Positions 31,438 through 39,119 are shown, counted from the stretch's first letter. The stretch: 64,000 nt of DNA from an uncultured Christensenella sp. (GCA_910577435.1 CAJTLV010000005.1:7080-71079); one strand, 5' to 3'. Translations and numbers: made by a program. Notes: generated from the sequence alone by a model not told the origin.

Positions 31438-32870
31438 TGCCCGCCTCCGAGTATCTCCGACCCCGCGCCGTGTTTAGTCACTTCCGCAGGCGATATTCCG
31501 AGTTCGCGAGCGATTATTTTGATAAGATTGGGCGTGCAGAAACCCGCCTGACACCTGCCCATTCCCGCCCGCACTCTGCGCTTCACTCCGTCGAGATCGA
31601 CCGCGCCGCGACGAACGGCTTCCGCAATCTCGCCCTCAGTGACCTGCTCGCACCGACACACTATGTTTCCGTAACGCCGATCGCGCGTTATTTGCGCCGT
31701 ACGCTCCTCGTCGTTTGCCGTCGCAAAGCACGGGATCGCCGTGCGGTGCGATTCGAAACGCTTATTTTCTTCGAGACCGATCTTTTGCGCTACTGCGCAC
31801 GCCAGATACTCGCCTATTGCGGGAGACGACGCAAGTCCGGGAGAACATATCCCGAGCGCGTTGAAAAAGCCGTCCTCGACCTCGCCCACTTCGAAGTCGT
31901 CGCCGCAAACCGCGCGAACACCCGAAAACTGCGTTATAATATCCCGCCGAGCAAGCGTCGGAACAGACAGCAACGCACGGTCGAACACGTCGTCGAGTCC
32001 GTTCGCCGTCGTCGACACGTCGTCCTTGTCCGAAATATCCTCAGCGTCCGGACCGACGAGTGTGTTGCCGTGACACGTGGGAGTAACGAGTATGCCCTTC
32101 CCGAGCGCCGTCGGCGTTTGGAATATCGTGCGTTCCACAGGCAACGCCGTTTTATCGAGAAGCATATACTGTCCGCGTCGCGGCGCTATCTTTCGCTTGC
32201 GTCCCGATACGAGATTGTTTATATCGTCGGCGTAAAGTCCCGCTGCGTTTATGACCGTGCGAGCGGCGTAAACACAGTCGGTCATTCCCGTTCGCACGGT
32301 TACTCTGTAACCGAAGTCGGACCGCTCTATCGCAGTCACGCGGCTATTAAGAGCGGCGCAGCCGCCGTTTTCCAGAAAGTTTTCATAACACGCTATCGTA
32401 AGTTCGTAAGGCGATACGATAGCCGATGTCGGCGCGTACAGCGCACCAGACACACGCTCCGAAAGACGCGGTTCCAGCTTCCGCGCCGCGTCGCCGGATA
32501 TGATTTCGGTGTCCACGCCGTTCTCTATTCCGCGCGCTTTGAGCGTGTTAAGCACGCGCTTACCCGTCCCGTCGAACGCGATAACAAACGCGCCGTTCGC
32601 TTTGTAAGGCACTTCCAGCTCGCGGCACTTCGCCGCCATAAGCCGACTGCCTCCGACGTTGAATTTTGCCTTTAAGGTACCGGGCAGGGCGTCGTAGCCG
32701 GCATGCACTATGCCGGAATTCGCCTTGCTCGTTCCGACAGACACATCGCCCGCCGCTTCGAGCAATAGAAACCTGCCGTTAAACCGAGCAAGCTCACGCG
32801 CGGCAAACGTTCCTATCACTCCCCCGCCGATTATTATACAATCGTATGCTTTTACCCCGTTGTTATCCAT
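31434..32870 (-). CDS. FAD-dependent glycerol-3-phosphate dehydrogenase/oxidase-like oxidoreductase with a C-terminal BFD-like [2Fe-2S] domain
   Basis: ORF 31434..32912. Likely start MDNNGVKAYDCIIIGGGVIGT (32870). C-terminus has CRCEQVTEGEI...GMGRCQAGFC. Confidence 0.8.
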   Translation of the reverse strand: MDNNGVKAYDCIIIGGGVIGTFAARELARFNGRFLLLEAAGDVSVGTSKANSGIVHAGYDALPGTLKAKFNVGGSRLMAAKCRELEVPYKANGAFVIAFDGTGKRVLNTLKARGIENGVDTEIISGDAARKLEPRLSERVSGALYAPTSAIVSPYELTIACYENFLENGGCAALNSRVTAIERSDFGYRVTVRTGMTDCVYAARTVINAAGLYADDINNLVSGRKRKIAPRRGQYMLLDKTALPVERTIFQTPTALGKGILVTPTCHGNTLVGPDAEDISDKDDVSTTANGLDDVFDRALLSVPTLARRDIITQFSGVRAVCGDDFEVGEVEDGFFNALGICSPGLASSPAIGEYLACAVAQKIGLEENKRFESHRTAIPCFATANDEERTAQITRDRRYGNIVCRCEQVTEGEIAEAVRRGAVDLDGVKRRVRAGMGRCQAGFCTPNLIKIIARELGISPAEVTKHGAGSEILGGGQ

Positions 32871-33003
32871 ATATGAATTATACAACGTTTTTCCGTTTCT
32901 GTCAATAGGCACGAAAAGATTTACACATCCGTCTTTATGCGACTCGATCCTAACGCCGCCCGATAATCTTACGAATTATGATTTTATGAATTCCGAATTA
33001 TAT

Positions 33004-33032
33004 TTGACATCTTATACAAAATGTAGTATACT
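33004..33032 (+). promoter_or_regulatory. consensus SigA-type promoter placed for a leaderless transcript
   Basis: TTGACA, a 17-nt spacer, then TATACT. Only 7 nt separate the -10 element from ATG 33040, and there is no Shine-Dalgarno. Confidence 0.5.
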
Positions 33033-33039
33033 GATTTCG

Positions 33040-34050
33040 ATGCAGGACACAAGGGACATACGAACTATCTGTTTGAACTGCTTCGGAACCGTAGATATGC
33101 GCACCGGAGTATGTCCGTATTGCGGCAGACGCGCCGAAGTCGGCGCGCAAAACACGTCGGCATTACCGCTCAGAACTTTGCTTGCAGGCAGGTATCTCAT
33201 AAGCACGCCGCTCGGCAGAGGCGGATTCGGAATAACCTATAAAGGCTACGATATGCTAACGCGCGCACGCGTCGCAATAAAAGAATTCTTTCCTAAAGGA
33301 TATGCGACGCGCAGTCCCCGTTCGCTCGCCATCGACACGTCGGACGCGGCTAACGGCAAAGTATTCAATTATTGGCTGACCGCTTTCGTGCAGGAAGCAA
33401 ACGTTCTTACATCCATCAAGAATCTGGAAGGGATAGTCAACATTTACGACTTTTTCCTTACAAACAACACCGCATATATAATTATGGAATATCTGGACGG
33501 AATGAGCTTGCACAAGTTCATTCACGGCAGGGGCGGCAGATTGCACCTCAACGAAACGCTCAACGTTATGCGCCCCGTGCTCGAAACGCTTATGCTGTTA
33601 CACCGACACGGAATAGTACATAAGGACATTTCGCCGGAAAACATTCAGATAGTCAATAACCGCGCAATAAAGCTGATCGACTTCGGCGCGGCGTCGATAT
33701 ACACGCAGAACGTAAGTAAGCCGTTCTTCGTCCTGAAAAAAGGATACTCGCCCGTCGAGCTGTACTCGCAATCCAACGAGCAAGGCCCGTGGACGGACAT
33801 ATACGAGATCGGCGCTACCATATATACCTGTCTCGTCGGCAACCCCCCGCCCGACGCGACGGAACGCCGCATTCACGACAAGATAGTTCCGCCGTCGGCG
33901 CTCAACGTCCAGATCCAGCCCGTTCGCGAAAAATCGTTGCTGAAAGCGCTCGCGATAAAGCCGGAAGACAGATACAAGAGCATAGGAGAATTTCAGCAAA
34001 TGTTCTACGGCGAGTTCTTGCCTGCGGCAAGACTTACCACAAGACAATAA
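33040..34050 (+). CDS. soluble Hanks-type Ser/Thr protein kinase with an N-terminal zinc ribbon
   Basis: The track ORF 32710..34050 starts antisense to the glp gene. I call the start at MQDTRDIRT. CLNC...CPYC ribbon. Kinase motifs GRGGFGITY, AIKEF, HKDISPENI, DFGAAS, YSPVE. No TM or PASTA domains. Confidence 0.8.
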   Translation: MQDTRDIRTICLNCFGTVDMRTGVCPYCGRRAEVGAQNTSALPLRTLLAGRYLISTPLGRGGFGITYKGYDMLTRARVAIKEFFPKGYATRSPRSLAIDTSDAANGKVFNYWLTAFVQEANVLTSIKNLEGIVNIYDFFLTNNTAYIIMEYLDGMSLHKFIHGRGGRLHLNETLNVMRPVLETLMLLHRHGIVHKDISPENIQIVNNRAIKLIDFGAASIYTQNVSKPFFVLKKGYSPVELYSQSNEQGPWTDIYEIGATIYTCLVGNPPPDATERRIHDKIVPPSALNVQIQPVREKSLLKALAIKPEDRYKSIGEFQQMFYGEFLPAARLTTRQ

Positions 34051-34139: not shown

Positions 34140-34408
34140 AACTGCGCGCCGCTTTTGATAATACGCACCGAAGCGTTCTCCCGCCGGTTAACTCCGCCAA
34201 AGCTACCTTGTGGCACACGGCACATCTTGCTTAGTGCTGCTGCGGTCAAGCCCTGACACGGTTCACAAGCAGACGTTGCACAAGACCTTGACATCAACGC
34301 CACCTAACGGTAACAGACCTTCCATACGCAAACCGAGAGCGGTGTTCGACCCTACTGTAGCGGATTGTAGGTTACAGAGCGCCGCTAACTCTCCGTCTAG
34401 CGCAGTAC
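34140..34408 (-). ncRNA. ffs: signal recognition particle RNA, long Bacillus/Clostridium type with Alu domain (~265 nt)
   Basis: The minus strand aligns by eye along its whole length to B. subtilis scRNA. Examples: GAGUUAGCGGCGCUCUGUAACCUACAAUCCGCUACAGUAGGGUCGAA vs GAGGUAGCGGUGCCCUGUACCUGCAAUCCGCUCUAGCAGGGCCGAA; GGUGGCGUUGAUGUCAAGGUCUUGUGCAA; GAACCGUGUCAGG...GCAGCAGCA helix-8 region. The 5' CUGCGC pairs with the 3' GCGCAG. Confidence 0.85.
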
Positions 34409-34412
34409 GGTT

Positions 34413-34441
34413 ATTATACCCTTTCCTATCGAAAATAGCAA
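34413..34441 (-). promoter_or_regulatory. SigA-type promoter of ffs
   Basis: Minus strand reads TTGCTA, a 17-nt spacer, then TATAAT, about 7 nt before the predicted RNA 5' end. Confidence 0.55.
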
Positions 34442-34600
34442 GCGTTTTTACAAAGAATTGCATAGGCCGAAATTTTCCGAGTTTTTGCGCGTGCAAAATC
34501 CGATGTTTATTCGACCGTCGACCGTCGTCACCCGTAAACCGTCCGTCGCTTCAAATGACGGTCAAGAATCCACAATTAACGTTTACATAAATATTTATGC

Positions 34601-34629
34601 TTGCAAAACACGCCGAAGTATATTATAAT
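34601..34629 (+). promoter_or_regulatory. SigA-type promoter of the TIR / IMPase-HAD pair
   Basis: TTGCAA, a 17-nt spacer, then TATAAT. GGAGAA lies 5 nt before ATG 34656. Confidence 0.5.
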
Positions 34630-34655
34630 GATTAAAACGCTGTCGGAGAAATTCA

Positions 34656-35684
34656 ATGAGCATAAATAAAACGCACGACGTATTCATCGCATATCACGGT
34701 AGTTACGACCCGTCGGGGTCGCCCGAATATGCAGACAAACTGTACGGGTATCTAACATCTCGCGGTCTTAACTGCTTCTACTTCCCCGTTACCGGCAACG
34801 GCATTTACAAGGCGAATATCATAGAGGTTTTGCGCTCGCGCACTTTCGTTCTCGTCACGACCAACGGCCTGCACACGACCGAGAGCGGACGGATAGACTC
34901 CAAGTTCCATTACGAGCTTTCGACCGAAATAGACGCGTTCTACGCCACGTCACAGATAGACGAAGCATCGGTGTCGGACGCCGCAGTCCTAGCGTGCGGA
35001 GATTACCGCAAGGGCGACGAGGCGCGGCTCCACGAGTTGTTTGCCAATCGCACCCACTTTTTTCACGGCGGAGACGACTGTGTTTTCACGGACATTTACA
35101 ACTGGATAATGACCCGAATCGCGGATAAGCGCACGTGGCAGAATATGCAACACACTTCGGAAATTAAGGACGTTTTCGCGACGCGGTCGGCAATGCACCA
35201 AAGCTGTCGGTTGGACGATCTTATCGCGTCCGCGAAGAACGTGCGCGTCGTCGGCATATCCAATTCGGAGATGACCGCGCGCATAAATCCGTTCGCGATT
35301 TCCAACTGTATCGACAACGGCGGAACGGTCGAAATACTCTTTCTCGATCCTTACGGCAAATTCACGGCGCTCCGCGAGGAGGAAGAAAGCCTGCGAAGCG
35401 GACGCATCAAATCGATAACGGAAACTAACATCGAGACCGCGTTCGATATGCGACTGCGCGTCAAACATCCCGAAAATTTCAAATTGATGATATACGACAA
35501 ACAGCCGCGAATGAATATGATATTCACCGATAACCATCTCATTCTTCAATATTATGCCAACAACGTTCCCGGTTGGAGCAATCCCACGTTCTTTATCGAA
35601 CATCTCTCCAACTCGCCTATCTGGGATTTTTGCGAAAAGGTGTACGAATACCTCAAAAGCGACGCTAAGGAGGCTGTCATATGA
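34656..35684 (+). CDS. TIR-domain protein with a C-terminal DUF5919/PLD-fold-like domain
   Basis: 342 aa. The N-terminus HDVFIAYHGSYD...LNCFYFPV...RTFVLVTTNG...SKFHYELSTEIDAF follows the bacterial TIR_2/ThsB-like pattern with a candidate catalytic Glu. The C-terminal ~170 aa (VRVVGISNSEM...VEILFLDPYGKF...FKLMIYDKQPRMNMIFTDNHLILQYY) resembles DUF5919, from memory and not searched. Confidence 0.7.
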   Translation: MSINKTHDVFIAYHGSYDPSGSPEYADKLYGYLTSRGLNCFYFPVTGNGIYKANIIEVLRSRTFVLVTTNGLHTTESGRIDSKFHYELSTEIDAFYATSQIDEASVSDAAVLACGDYRKGDEARLHELFANRTHFFHGGDDCVFTDIYNWIMTRIADKRTWQNMQHTSEIKDVFATRSAMHQSCRLDDLIASAKNVRVVGISNSEMTARINPFAISNCIDNGGTVEILFLDPYGKFTALREEEESLRSGRIKSITETNIETAFDMRLRVKHPENFKLMIYDKQPRMNMIFTDNHLILQYYANNVPGWSNPTFFIEHLSNSPIWDFCEKVYEYLKSDAKEAVI

Positions 35685-37126
35685 AAAGCTATTCTGCCGA
35701 ACTCGAATTCATAACCGAAAAAATGCAAACCGCTTACGAGCGGTACGCGCGAGGAGATCTCGGCTCGGTCGAACAGAAATCGGCGTTCGATCTGGTGACG
35801 GATATAGATAAAAACATCGAAGCGGAGCTTGTGGCGGCTATCGCAAACCGTTTCCCGACCGATGTCATTCACGGCGAAGAGACAACACACGACGAACTGA
35901 CCGAAAACAGAACGTGGACGATAGACCCCATCGACGGCACTTGCAATATGGCGAGCGGCGTTCCGCTTTACGGCGTGCAGTGCGCGCTGTTCGACGGCGG
36001 ACAACCCGTCGCGGCAGTTATATATATTCCCAATCTCGGCTATCTGATGACAGCCGAAAAAGGGTGCGGTTGCTATCTCAACGGCGAGCGCGTATACGTC
36101 AAACGCGACGGCACTGTCAATAATGCCGTAGCGAGCTTCGGCGATTATCCGCATACAAAAAATTCGCGCGTGGCAAAGCGCCAACACGCGGCTATCGCGG
36201 AACTTTACACGCAGATCGCAAAGATACGGATGTTCGGCGCGGCGTGCGCGGACTTTCTGTTCGTAGCGGCAGGCAAGACAGACTGCACGGTCGTGATCAC
36301 ACGCAATCTGTGGGACATAGCGCCGGGAATACTTATGTGTCGCGAAGCGGGCGCTGTCGTCGTAAACCTCGACGGCGAGCCCTACTCTTTCGGCGACGAC
36401 GGAGTTATCGCCTGCGCGAGCGCCGAGCTTGCCAAAGTATTCACGAGTGCATTCGACAATAGGTTTTCGATCGGCGGTTCGCCGCGCAAATACAAAGCTG
36501 TCATATTCGACTTCGACGGCGTGATCTTCGACACCGAAAAATACCACTATGCGGCGTGGAACGTCGCGGCGAAAACGGTAGGCGCGCACATTAAGCCCGA
36601 AGAATACATTCCGCTCAAAAGCACGGGCAGCGACAATATAATCGATCATATCGAGCGACGCGCGGGGCGCAAGCTGACCGCCGCCGAGCGCAAAAACATT
36701 AGAGCGGTAAAGCTGACGGAATACGACAAATCGATCGCCGAAATGTCCGAACGCGACTTTTTGTCGGGCGCGTTCGAGCTGATCGAACTTCTTTCCAGCC
36801 GTGCGGTCAAAATAGGCATTGCAACATCCGCATCGAAATGCAAGGATATATTGAGCAACTTCGGAAAACTCGATATATTCGACTGCATAGCCGACGGCAC
36901 GCTCGCCTGCCCCAAAAAGCCGTCGCCCGATATTTACGTCGCAGCGGCAAAAATGCTGAACGTCGATCCCAAAGACTGCCTTGTCATAGAGGACGCAATA
37001 TCGGGGATAGAATCGGGACACGCCGCAGGCGCGGGCGTTATAGCCGTCGGCGGAATAAAATCGGATAAAGCGTTTGCGTGCGTAAATTCGCTCGACGAAA
37101 TTCTCGACACGGTCAAGTTCGATTAG
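35681..37126 (+). CDS. fusion of an inositol-monophosphatase/CysQ-family phosphatase and a HAD-IA (beta-phosphoglucomutase-like) hydrolase
   Basis: 481 aa. IMPase motifs HGEETT, WTIDPIDGTCN, LWDIAPGILMCREAGA. HAD motifs I DFDGVIFDT, II IATSAS, III KKPSPD, IV EDAISGIESG. ATGA overlap with the TIR gene, and AAGGAGG 7 nt upstream. Confidence 0.85.
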   Translation: MKSYSAELEFITEKMQTAYERYARGDLGSVEQKSAFDLVTDIDKNIEAELVAAIANRFPTDVIHGEETTHDELTENRTWTIDPIDGTCNMASGVPLYGVQCALFDGGQPVAAVIYIPNLGYLMTAEKGCGCYLNGERVYVKRDGTVNNAVASFGDYPHTKNSRVAKRQHAAIAELYTQIAKIRMFGAACADFLFVAAGKTDCTVVITRNLWDIAPGILMCREAGAVVVNLDGEPYSFGDDGVIACASAELAKVFTSAFDNRFSIGGSPRKYKAVIFDFDGVIFDTEKYHYAAWNVAAKTVGAHIKPEEYIPLKSTGSDNIIDHIERRAGRKLTAAERKNIRAVKLTEYDKSIAEMSERDFLSGAFELIELLSSRAVKIGIATSASKCKDILSNFGKLDIFDCIADGTLACPKKPSPDIYVAAAKMLNVDPKDCLVIEDAISGIESGHAAGAGVIAVGGIKSDKAFACVNSLDEILDTVKFD

Positions 37127-37166
37127 TTAAATATTTATACCGCGTCATTCGATCCCGCATATCGCA

Positions 37167-39119
37167 TTATTCGATAGGCGTATTGTTTATCTTATACTCG
37201 ACGCGGGCGAAAAGCCGTCTTTCGACGGTTTTTTTTGCGCGCTTGATCTCGCGTTTCACGGTGCGCGCGTCTATTTCCCGCGCGGGCAATTTAGGTTTTT
37301 TTACGAACGGCACTTTGAGAAGTTTTTCTATTTCGGGCGCGGTCGGTTTAAGTTTGTCTCCCGTTGCGTAATATGACGGCGCCTCGCGCTCGGTAAGTCC
37401 GATCGCCGTCTTTTTTTCGCCGTCCAGTTTGAAAGCACAACGCGCGCGTATATCGGCAGACGAAAACCCTATTGCCGCCTCGTACTTGCCGCCGAGCGTT
37501 TTGAACGATCCGTCGTTCACATCGAACAGCGCCAAATCCTCAGCATCGATGACGAGTTCGACATTTTCGGACTCGCCCGAACCCAACTCGACGCGCGAAA
37601 ACGCGCACAGTTTACCGCTTAATCCGTAAGCGCCCTTACCGCAGTATGTTACGTATACCTGAACCGAAGTCGTGCCGCGCACCGCTCCGACGTTTTTAAC
37701 GTCAAGCGACACTACGGCGGTATTGCCGACCACCGTTATCTTCGGCTTACCTAAGTCGAATGTCGTGTAGCCGAGTCCGTGTCCGAACGGGAACAGAACG
37801 TCGGCGTTTGCGAAATTATCGAAATACGTATGCCCCGCATAAACAGAGGTGTATCGGAAATCGCCTCTGTCGGCGTAAACTGGGTTATTCGCAGGGTAAG
37901 CCGAACGCGACTTGCACCACGTAAACGGCAGTCTGCCGCGCGGCTCGCGCCGTTTTACCAACGTTTCTATATCCGCCGCAGTTTCGAAGTACGGGCAGAA
38001 AACGACTGCGTTTACACTGTCTATGAACGGCAGTTCCGCCGCGCAGTCGCCGCACAGCGCTACGACAACCCTGCGCGACTTCGCCGCGCTTTCCATCGCG
38101 CGAACCGCATCGTCGGGGATGCCGCCGAAATATTCGGTCACGGCGAATACCGCGACGTCCGCACTTGTACGCGCAGCATCTTTTATGGGACGAACCTTAC
38201 ACTTGCCGTCGTCGAACATAGACGGATCGCCGAAAATTTCGACGCTCAATCCGTCTGCGGGAAGGACGCCGTCGTTTTTGAGCAATACCGCACTCGCAAA
38301 AAACATATCCGCGTCGGCAGGCGTGCGGTCGAACTGTTTTTTATAAAACCCGTGCGTTTTTGCGACTGTTGCCACGATACGCTCGACCGCCCGCGCAGTC
38401 TTGTTTTCGAGCATTTTTCCGTCTACGACCGCCCGCGCTATCTTGCGTCTGTCTGCATTGTCCATACCGAGCTGATACGCGCCGCAAGCCGACAGGCTTT
38501 CGACGCCGCGACAGCGCGTCATTATCACGGCGTCGGGCGGCACGAACGCCGAAAGGAGTTCTGCGGTACTACGCGTCGCGCCGACTTCTTCTCCGCCTAA
38601 GTATCCGCCGTCGAGTAAAAGCCCCGCCGCCTTTTTCCCCGCCTTTCGAAGCGGACGCAGGTACACTTCGCGGAGCGCGCGAACGTCTGCCGTGCGGTAG
38701 CCGTATTCGCCCTGACCGAGCGCGCCCGTGTAGACGTAGCCGAGCACGCCGCCGTCCGCCGCCGCACAGAGAAGCGTGCTTGCGAGATACGGGTCTTCCG
38801 AAAAACACCCGCTCGCATCGAGCCGCATCGGGTCGAGCATTAATCCGCAACCGACAGTTCCCGCAAAAGCGAGACGGGCGCGCGCCGCATCCTGCGATCG
38901 GGTTTTGCTCACCGCCGCAACGGTTTCCGGCGAAAACGTACAGCCGAGCGCAAGCTCGGACGGAACGTTTACCGCATACGGAAAAAGAGAGCACCCGAAA
39001 TCGACGCTCTCCACTCTTAGTCTGTCCACGCTCGCCGTCACCGTTCCGCCGCCTGCAAGCGACAGTCTTTCGGCAAGGGTCATTTGCGCTATTACGCTGC
39101 GAACGCGCTCAATATCCAT
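37167..39119 (-). CDS. glycoside hydrolase family 3-like protein
   Basis: 650 aa. The GH3 C-terminal alpha/beta sandwich and Fn3-like region are recognisable (FPFGHGLGYTTF, VKNVGAVRGTTSVQVY). I could not place the N-terminal catalytic-domain motifs, so activity is uncertain. Confidence 0.6.
   Translation of the reverse strand: MDIERVRSVIAQMTLAERLSLAGGGTVTASVDRLRVESVDFGCSLFPYAVNVPSELALGCTFSPETVAAVSKTRSQDAARARLAFAGTVGCGLMLDPMRLDASGCFSEDPYLASTLLCAAADGGVLGYVYTGALGQGEYGYRTADVRALREVYLRPLRKAGKKAAGLLLDGGYLGGEEVGATRSTAELLSAFVPPDAVIMTRCRGVESLSACGAYQLGMDNADRRKIARAVVDGKMLENKTARAVERIVATVAKTHGFYKKQFDRTPADADMFFASAVLLKNDGVLPADGLSVEIFGDPSMFDDGKCKVRPIKDAARTSADVAVFAVTEYFGGIPDDAVRAMESAAKSRRVVVALCGDCAAELPFIDSVNAVVFCPYFETAADIETLVKRREPRGRLPFTWCKSRSAYPANNPVYADRGDFRYTSVYAGHTYFDNFANADVLFPFGHGLGYTTFDLGKPKITVVGNTAVVSLDVKNVGAVRGTTSVQVYVTYCGKGAYGLSGKLCAFSRVELGSGESENVELVIDAEDLALFDVNDGSFKTLGGKYEAAIGFSSADIRARCAFKLDGEKKTAIGLTEREAPSYYATGDKLKPTAPEIEKLLKVPFVKKPKLPAREIDARTVKREIKRAKKTVERRLFARVEYKINNTPIE

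Follow-up and report, generated by a model that had tools for sequence, protein, structure and literature searches.

We analysed a 64,000-nucleotide stretch of DNA from an uncultured Christensenella sp. (GCA_910577435.1, CAJTLV010000005.1:7080-71079; hereafter the window, with positions counted from its first letter), in which the region 34601-37126 carries a two-gene cassette. Gene 1 encodes a protein with an N-terminal TIR-like domain and a C-terminal DUF5919 domain, and gene 2 encodes a fusion of an inositol monophosphatase-family (IMPase) domain with a HAD-family phosphatase domain. Calling of open reading frames (ORFs) returned both genes where a preliminary description, made from the sequence alone, had placed them. 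The translational coupling proposed there is present in the sequence, as an AAGGAGG motif (35667-35673) lying 7 nt ahead of the gene 2 ATG and an ATGA overlap of the two genes (35681-35684). The pair also has its own promoter-like site, TTGCAA-17-TATAAT, which is the top-scoring plus-strand match across 34300-37400 and lies 27 nt upstream of the gene 1 ATG. Across genomes, gene 1 homologues are found together with an IMPase gene, and this partnership goes with DUF5919 rather than with the TIR-like head.

We found 101 homologues of gene 1, and an AlphaFold2 model built on 45 homologues reached a mean predicted local distance difference test score of 88.9. The N-terminal half of this model matches the TIR domain of SARM1 in Foldseek (9ugj_B with TMt 0.70 and a root-mean-square deviation of 3.8 Å; 6o0q with 0.64), with other matches to TIR-STING (6wt7, 9lmq) and SPARTA. 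When a profile of 24 diverse N-terminal domains was searched against the PDB, 13 of the 14 matches were SARM1 TIR chains, each of them weak (E 0.14); the search with the single gene 1 sequence gave spurious matches only, for example to gamma-tubulin complex proteins. In hhalign, the family profile aligned with 10 Pfam-positive TIR_2 domains from related loci (Prob 93.8%, E 1.8e-7), and one distant member, from locus L028, has a sub-threshold Pfam TIR_2 match of its own (E 2.7e-4). The same alignment places E91, in STE-IDAF, on the invariant catalytic Glu of canonical TIR_2 domains. E91 is invariant in alignments of 45, 24 and 42 sequences, and F10, Y13, H14, G15, Y17 and W150 are likewise invariant in the family alignments. 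The βA-αA loop contains a two-residue His-Gly insertion relative to the canonical 'FISY', at the position of SARM1 R569/R570. SARM1, an NAD+ hydrolase, is thus the best structural and profile match, with Y13 equivalent to Y568 and E91 to E642; unlike gene 1, it has Arg-Arg at the insertion and carries ARM/SAM regulatory domains, and the identity is about 19%.

By modelled fold, profile homology and conserved Glu, the gene 1 head is a predicted member of the TIR superfamily, as the preliminary description had proposed, although family libraries do not see it; the model has the flavodoxin-like fold of TIR domains, and E91 aligns with the catalytic position. The acidic residue expected there is indeed a conserved Glu, but it is E91 and not E87 (YEL), where the earlier description had put it. 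Since Pfam gives no TIR match for gene 1 even at E ≤ 1, we treat the head as a separate, unmodelled subfamily, named 'AYHG' after its signature. An identity with DUF4062/NIR was rejected for lack of a Pfam match. The subfamily is rare: a phmmer search with the domain against 1.84 billion cluster representatives returned 73 at E ≤ 1e-3. The AYHG domain of gene 1 is a predicted NAD(P)+ glycohydrolase, with E91 as its putative catalytic residue.

The second half of gene 1 matches Pfam DUF5919 (PF19319) over residues 217-313 (37.7 bits against a cutoff of 23.5, E 2.3e-9). In Foldseek it matches proteins with a phospholipase D (PLD) fold, the top one being the C-terminal domain of TrmBL2 (E 1e-7), besides vaccinia F13, PssA, PLD3, a Streptomyces PLD and FAM83 DUF1669. 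None of the Clostridial and Streptomyces DUF5919 proteins aligned has the His or Lys of the H-x-K-x4-D (HKD) motif, and the sequence reads R-x-N/T instead; R285, D292, R240, E241, E243, Q298 and several Gly/Pro residues are invariant, and the domain carries an RE-x-EE motif. A PLD fold that lacks the HKD residues makes DUF5919 a pseudo-PLD domain, which agrees with the HKD-less PLD-fold module named in the preliminary description, while a catalytic PLD nuclease was rejected because the motif is missing. Anantharaman et al. 2013 (PMC3710099) listed the SAV_2148 archetype as an inactive HEPN domain with a 'phospholipase D nuclease' attached; judged by its residues, the 'nuclease' label is not supported. 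Given the Arg in place of the catalytic His on a phosphate-binding PLD scaffold, the TrmB-effector-like fold and the role of the domain as the regulatory half of other proteins, the ligand of DUF5919 may be a phosphorylated small molecule. Literature searches found no published paper on DUF5919.

Gene 2 contains all the motifs quoted in the preliminary description (HGEE, WTIDPIDGT and WDIAPG; DFDGVIFDT, ATSAS, KKPSPD and EDAISG), and Pfam recognizes both domains (Inositol_P, 172.8 bits; HAD_2, residues 274-456, 97 bits), so that the proposed fusion of two catalytically intact phosphatases stands. The IMPase residues E66, E67, D82, D85, G86, T87, W211 and D212 are conserved in 100% of 30 cassette or solo IMPases, and D277, D279 and K413 of the HAD domain are conserved wherever the HAD occurs. 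The nearest solved structures to the IMPase domain are the T. maritima and Aquifex IMPase/FBPases, and every NCBIfam equivalog model of that family scores below its cutoff (HisN 152.6/275; SuhB 106/332; CysQ 65/229), as does the NADP phosphatase/NAD kinase model (52 against 493). For the HAD domain, HAD-SF-IA-v3 exceeds its cutoff (61.7 against 29.4) and the bPGM equivalog falls below it (142 against 189.4). No PADLOC model matches gene 2.

A survey with one genome per species, covering 185,579 species, yielded 33 loci, 22 of which hold a full-length gene 1 homologue. All 22 have an IMPase gene directly downstream, starting 5-35 nt after gene 1 or overlapping it, even where gene 1 identity is only 33%. 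Their hosts are Clostridia, Bacteroidales, Segatella, a Lachnospiraceae metagenome-assembled genome (MAG) and a Thermoplasmatales MAG. Extra Bacteroidales contigs (L037-39) and a groundwater MAG (L047) have the same arrangement, the latter also with the 4-nt overlap. Counting the 22 genome loci, L037, L047 and the window as 25 distinct loci, an IMPase gene lies directly downstream in 25/25. When all neighbouring ORFs were clustered, the window itself being left out of these neighbour statistics, only gene 1 and the IMPase recurred, and the flanks differed in almost every locus. The pairing is therefore confirmed as far above chance. Where the preliminary description had asked whether the two genes keep company in other genomes, the IMPase half of its proposed unit holds throughout and the HAD half does not: a HAD is fused, adjacent or nearby in 15/25 loci and undetected in 10, which makes it an accessory. 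It is fused to the IMPase in the window and its close relatives only (L002, L003, L007-L011), is a separate adjacent gene in L001, L006, L012, L016 and L037, and lies within 3 kb in L017 and L047. The full-length gene 1 family is extremely scarce and scattered, being present in about 22 of the 185,579 species surveyed, and the cassette has been transferred across phyla and domains into different contexts.

The two halves of gene 1 also occur apart, and the phosphatases sort with them. AYHG heads without DUF5919 carry other tails, including cupin, methyltransferase, AAA_16/NACHT-type STAND with TPR, SIR2_2 with an IF-2B-like domain, HD_3/YfbR-like nucleotidase, LRR and PNP_UDP_1. None of these head-only proteins has an IMPase gene next to it in the surveyed loci, and 5/11 head-only loci have an adjacent HAD gene. 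A single 928-residue ORF (L027:14431-17214) joins HAD_2, an AYHG TIR-like domain and a SIR2_2-like region; sister proteins (L027:7896-10124, L028:9989-12256) add an IF-2B-like C-terminus of the ribose-phosphate isomerase family and have a separate HAD gene just upstream. The DUF5919 half, for its part, also matches actinomycete proteins of about 280 residues, where it forms the non-DNA-binding half of XRE-type helix-turn-helix (HTH) one-component regulators; the HTH head is detectable in at least 11 of 34 such proteins. In 7/8 actinomycete loci examined (three Streptomyces linear plasmids, Nonomuraea, S. chartreusis, Actinomadura and Micromonospora), an IMPase gene with the same 4-nt overlap follows the DUF5919 gene, the overlap having been read in L044-46 and L052-54. 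The exception is a HEPN-DUF5919 protein of S. rimosus, which has no IMPase neighbour. The IMPase partnership thus goes with DUF5919 whatever the head, and HAD or HD phosphohydrolases go with the AYHG head whatever the tail.

Two further settings of these actinomycete genes were observed. The Streptomyces versions on linear plasmids have GntR and WhiB genes and series of small ORFs as neighbours. On the actinomycete plasmids L050:1-7777 and L051:1-7702, an IMPase that shares about 50% identity with the one in the Streptomyces cassette belongs to a conserved operon of HAD, two hypothetical proteins, nucleotidyltransferase, small AAA ATPase, IMPase, dTMP kinase, APH-like kinase, radical SAM enzyme and aminotransferase, which resembles a nucleotide or cyclitol modification pathway.

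The cassette is lost unevenly. Gene 1 without an IMPase was never seen among the loci found, while solo IMPases of the cassette clade exist in L048 and L049. In L049 (4931-5774), whose flanks match those of L015/L018 (EF-P 90%, D-Tyr deacylase 70% and the downstream DUF5662 gene 74% identical), the orthologous IMPase is kept at 57% identity and gene 1 is missing, with only a terminator hairpin in the 70-bp gap; this solo IMPase has diverged more (57%) than its flanks (70-90%). At L055:9001-11455, the integrase fragment at the end of a conjugative-element segment runs on in frame into gene 1, of which only the part from about residue 62 remains; the AYHG strand is thereby deleted and the downstream IMPase left intact. 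The segment carries a DUF87/TraG ATPase, PhdYeFM-ParE and integrase N-terminal domains. An IMPase that is kept after gene 1 is lost, and never the reverse, is the pattern expected if the phosphatase protects against the TIR. Separately, two gene 1 homologues are split by a frameshift in the TIR-DUF5919 linker (L018:10001-11033, L021:5429-6440), which could be a pseudogene, an assembly error or a natural domain fission.

The explanation we favour, with a probability of about 0.42, is a ligand-gated TIR NADase whose phosphorylated ligand is controlled by the phosphatase. Gene 1 would be a self-contained sensor-effector, with the TIR head acting as an NAD(P)+ glycohydrolase and the non-catalytic DUF5919 tail binding a phosphorylated small molecule, probably a nucleotide or sugar phosphate, and controlling TIR activation, most likely through oligomerization. 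Gene 2, as a co-translated and obligate phosphomonoesterase, would hydrolyse this ligand by its IMPase domain and, in this lineage, the fused HAD, which would keep the TIR off at basal ligand levels, set the threshold and reset the system after activation. If the ligand rose faster than the phosphatase could clear it, for instance when a phage drives the turnover of nucleic acids or nucleotides, or under some other metabolic insult, the TIR would fire and deplete NAD. This proposal builds on the TIR fold with its aligned Glu, the HKD-less PLD domain, the intact phosphatase sites, and the linkage of the IMPase to gene 1 and to DUF5919; what it predicts is that gene 1 is an NADase, that DUF5919 binds a ligand, that control runs in the stated direction and that the cassette serves in conflict or defence. 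Since the IMPase tracks DUF5919 and not the TIR, its role is best sought at the level of the ligand or signal that DUF5919 reads. Nucleotide-monophosphate danger signals and phosphatase components have a precedent in defence (bioRxiv 10.64898/2026.01.15.699771).

Several observations weigh against ligand control of a defensive TIR. No TIR or defence model in NCBIfam or PADLOC matches gene 1, nor, as said, does any TIR family in Pfam. The 130 cassette neighbours scanned are mostly ordinary or housekeeping genes and form no consistent defence island. The TIR form was found on no phage in INPHARED or IMG/VR, with only generic fold matches in BFVD, and on no plasmid in PLSDB, where only the DUF5919 half was matched. 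In L015 and L018 the cassette is syntenic and not hypervariable, its divergence being in line with that of the adjoining genes (65-68% against 63-95%). TIR-like proteins with a STAND/TPR sensor, too, have HAD or HD phosphohydrolases beside them, which fits chemistry on TIR substrates or products better than ligand clearance. Finally, the window and Streptomyces cassette IMPases are only 32-33% identical; a single specific clade of the two is unsupported, the DUF5919-IMPase pairing is either ancient or convergent, and it may have arisen twice for different reasons.

The main competitor, which we consider unlikely yet the best of the alternatives, has the phosphatases join in the chemistry of the TIR reaction as co-effectors and complete a collapse of pyridine nucleotides, by converting NADP(H) to NAD(H), by dephosphorylating nicotinamide mononucleotide, phosphoribosyl pyrophosphate or ADP-ribose phosphates, or by stripping nucleotides, so that NAD-reconstitution pathways of phages could not rebuild the pool. 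This comes near the original proposal, in which the phosphatases might process 2'-phospho products of the TIR. It is encouraged by the three unrelated phosphohydrolase folds that accompany AYHG TIRs (IMPase; HAD, including the HAD-TIR-SIR2-like polypeptide of L027; and HD_3/YfbR-like 5'-nucleotidase fusions), and by the HAD genes flanking TIR-STAND/TPR proteins, since a small-molecule ligand is improbable for sensors of that kind. Effectors that deplete nucleotides with two enzymes, a HAD among them, have been documented (10.64898/2026.01.15.699771), and how NAD-depletion defence turns out hinges on phosphate chemistry on NAD fragments (10.64898/2026.01.28.702374). But DUF5919 keeps its IMPase even with an HTH head and no TIR, TIR-like proteins without DUF5919 have no IMPase, and NADP phosphatase or CysQ models fit the IMPase domain no better than generic IMPases do. 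The partners of the IMPase thus speak against its processing of 2'-phospho TIR products. Because IMPase and HAD are fused in the window, ligand clearance and co-effector action need not exclude each other.

Rather improbable, in our judgement, is a metabolic switch outside any conflict, that is, a housekeeping-type regulator of NAD or of sugar-phosphate/inositol-phosphate homeostasis in anaerobes, in which DUF5919 and IMPase would form an ordinary substrate-sensing regulator and its enzyme, and the TIR would tune NAD turnover without killing. The housekeeping flanks in the window and most loci, the syntenic inheritance and ordinary divergence in L015/L018, the persistence of the IMPase alone at the same site and the failure to find phage copies would all suit such a switch, as would the HTH-DUF5919 plus IMPase layout, which resembles a minimal catabolic operon, and the related actinomycete IMPase in a biosynthetic-looking operon. 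It accords poorly with the extreme rarity of the family (those 22 or so species representatives, and 73 clusters in 1.84 billion proteins), with its transfer across phyla and domains into different contexts, with the fusion of the head's relatives to STAND, SIR2 and LRR and their TIR_2 arrays, and with the actinomycete versions on linear plasmids or beside a methylase and a giant helicase.

A guard arrangement, in which DUF5919 would bind the IMPase protein itself as a target or decoy of invaders, so that inhibition or sequestration of the IMPase frees the TIR (or HTH) head, appears very unlikely. That translational coupling by a 4-nt overlap is kept across phyla hints at a stoichiometric complex, and the IMPase-family protein SuhB of E. 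coli is a Nus-factor protein partner in solved complexes; yet the IMPase catalytic residues are strictly conserved, for which a pure decoy would have no need. The idea that an unrelated hypothetical protein adjoins a housekeeping SuhB/PGM-like enzyme by chance, for which the solo IMPases of the same clade (L048, L049) might speak, is refuted by the co-occurrence data, with an IMPase directly downstream in 25/25 gene 1 and 7/8 actinomycete DUF5919 loci, mostly overlapping and in unrelated contexts.

A defence role of the cassette is plausible. The domain architectures of relatives, the patchy distribution across phyla and the occasional TIR_2 arrays suggest it, and the housekeeping genes at most flanks and the failure to find the cassette on phages count against it. 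Specifically, AYHG-head relatives sit in conflict-type architectures, with STAND/NACHT and TPR, SIR2_2, LRR and TIR_2 arrays, and such arrays surround head-only relatives in L022, L024, L025 and L040. Among the cassettes themselves, canonical TIR_2 genes are exceptions, with three in a row directly downstream in L013 and one nearby in L016. The L013 genes (L013:11833-15356, in a Bacteroidales MAG) lie on the cassette strand; one is strikingly SARM1-like ('NIFISYRR...DWVRLE'), and two of the three match the PADLOC ThsB and SAVED_TIR models. No CD-NTase gene recurs among the neighbours, and the sensor domain is DUF5919 and not SAVED or STING. Apart from the TIR form, the Micromonospora HTH-DUF5919 and IMPase genes (L054:3501-7804) adjoin a C5 DNA methylase and a 1747-residue DEAD/MZB helicase of DUF1998 type, a defence-island-like setting.

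Neither the PADLOC models used (2023) nor any paper retrieved in our literature searches describes the pair, in agreement with the preliminary description, which had matched it to no named system; searches combining TIR domain, inositol monophosphatase and phage, or Thoeris and phosphatase or IMPase, found no description. The TIR effectors of CBASS, in which ligand-induced filaments activate the TIR NADase, are similar in that TIR-SAVED and TIR-STING join an N-terminal TIR to a C-terminal non-catalytic domain of ligand-sensor type in a single polypeptide. They differ in that the sensor here is a pseudo-PLD, no CD-NTase or other nucleotide cyclase is present, and the partner is a phosphomonoesterase, which would remove a ligand rather than make one. 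Thoeris likewise has a TIR enzyme in a small operon, some AYHG-head relatives match ThsB_TIR models, and the L013 cassette has TIR_2/ThsB-like neighbours; unlike Thoeris, the cassette has no separate signal-binding effector (SLOG, Macro or others), and genes 1 and 2 match no PADLOC Thoeris model. Thoeris combines a ThsB TIR with a ThsA-type effector, a systematic TIR survey distinguishes 29 types of it (bioRxiv 10.64898/2025.12.03.692087), and the main text of that survey mentions no phosphatase or IMPase partner.

The DUF5919 side has its own relatives. The TrmB family is linked through the TrmBL2 fold match, and the XRE-HTH-DUF5919 regulators share both DUF5919 and the overlapping IMPase partner, whereas the head here is a TIR enzyme, for which NAD cleavage in place of transcription is the predicted output. 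SAV_2148-type HEPN proteins (PMC3710099) also fuse a conflict-type head to a C-terminal DUF5919 (a full-length Pfam match in L043); their HEPN head differs from the TIR and is inactive, and the one example examined has no IMPase neighbour. Small operons with a HAD phosphatase also encode the nucleotide-depleting defence effectors PUA-Calcineurin-CE-HAD and CARF-HAD, for which the HAD is essential and which are triggered by a nucleotide monophosphate (bioRxiv 10.64898/2026.01.15.699771); these systems lack TIR, IMPase and PLD-like domains, and as far as tested their HAD falls outside the β-PGM-like IA type. Proteins combining a TIR with a sensor are already known, and what is new is this sensor domain and its obligate phosphatase partner.

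The features of the cassette are collected in Table 1. The segment 37127-37250 folds with -36.3 kcal/mol (z -2.6), and the terminator-like hairpin in it, which a consensus terminator scan missed, falls within the 3' end of the convergent GH3 ORF. On the other side, the large bacterial signal recognition particle (SRP) RNA gene ffs (34142-34405, minus strand, Rfam) is divergent from gene 1 and has its own promoter-like site. The suggestion that ffs served as an island insertion point does not hold, given the opposite strand and separate promoter of the SRP RNA and the unrelated contexts of the cassette elsewhere; an island beside ffs was rejected, as this context was shown at no other locus and the flanks are ordinary housekeeping genes (glycerol kinase/GlpA region, Ser/Thr kinase, ffs, GH3, serS). 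The kinase gene just upstream of ffs (32710-34050, plus strand, Pkinase) encodes an N-terminal CxxC...CxxC zinc-ribbon-like motif and is not kept beside the cassette in other genomes. Two long antisense ORFs overlap genes 1 and 2 (34989-35603, 204 residues; 35552-37021, 489 residues; both minus strand); they had no homologues of their own in our analyses and seem to be side effects of a GC-rich codon usage.

Table 1 Features of the cassette, by position in the window
Feature	Position	Strand	Basis
Promoter-like site, sigma-70-type, TTGCAA-17 nt-TATAAT	34601..34629	+	10/12 matches
Gene 1, 342 aa: TIR-like domain, linker, DUF5919 (pseudo-PLD)	34656..35684	+	ORF
Divergent TIR domain (predicted), aa 1-158, 'FIAYHG[ST]Y' subfamily	34656..35129	+	Foldseek, hhalign, PDB profile matches
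A12-Y13-H14-G15 signature, βA-αA loop	34689..34700	+	Alignment of 24 diverse members
E91 codon, predicted catalytic glutamate	34926..34928	+	Invariance and TIR_2 alignment
DUF5919/PLD-fold domain without HKD motif, aa ~170-342	35163..35681	+	Pfam PF19319, Foldseek
R285-M-N287-M-I-F-T-D292, degenerate counterpart of H-x-K-x4-D	35508..35531	+	Streptomyces DUF5919 alignments
AAGGAGG ribosome-binding site within gene 1, then ATGA stop/start overlap	35667..35684	+	Direct sequence reading
Gene 2, 481 aa: IMPase-HAD fusion	35681..37126	+	ORF, Pfam, NCBIfam
IMPase-family domain, aa 13-256, catalytic residues intact	35717..36448	+	Pfam Inositol_P (PF00459), E 1.4e-50
HAD-IA (β-phosphoglucomutase-like) phosphatase domain, aa 271-458	36491..37054	+	Pfam HAD_2, E 1.5e-27
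Hairpin GCCGTC-TTTC-GACGG and T8 run, likely intrinsic terminator of the pair	37210..37236	+	Fold

Bacteria, plants and animals all have TIR enzymes at the centre of their immunity, and how each is activated and restrained is the key question for every new system. Here, a TIR is paired with a class of enzyme that had no earlier link to TIR systems and with DUF5919 as a proposed sensor, and the comparative data give a testable logic of phosphatase-controlled ligand, pseudo-PLD sensor and NADase output. Interchangeable heads (HTH, HEPN-like, TIR) on a constant DUF5919 and IMPase point to DUF5919 as a phosphatase-coupled regulatory module, with the head as the output. More broadly, and with greater doubt than for the window cassette itself, we tentatively suggest that an output head (XRE-HTH, HEPN-like or TIR) joined to DUF5919 and paired with an IMPase may be an undescribed, widespread two-gene switch and a new signalling principle, in which the pseudo-PLD would read a phosphorylated molecule whose level is set by a dedicated IMPase; the actinomycete versions on mobile elements could then be signal-sensing, signal-degrading counter-defence modules. 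On this broader reading, the TIR version in the window would be a new abortive-infection or stress system with the phosphatase as the safety catch of an NADase, and its trigger would be a new nucleotide- or sugar-phosphate danger signal. If confirmed, the logic of the module would enrich bacterial immunity by a new sensor domain and, in all probability, a new small-molecule signal. Several hundred DUF5919-IMPase pairs of actinomycetes would gain a function, and it would define a rare TIR subfamily with an altered NAD-binding loop and recurrent recruitment of phosphohydrolases.

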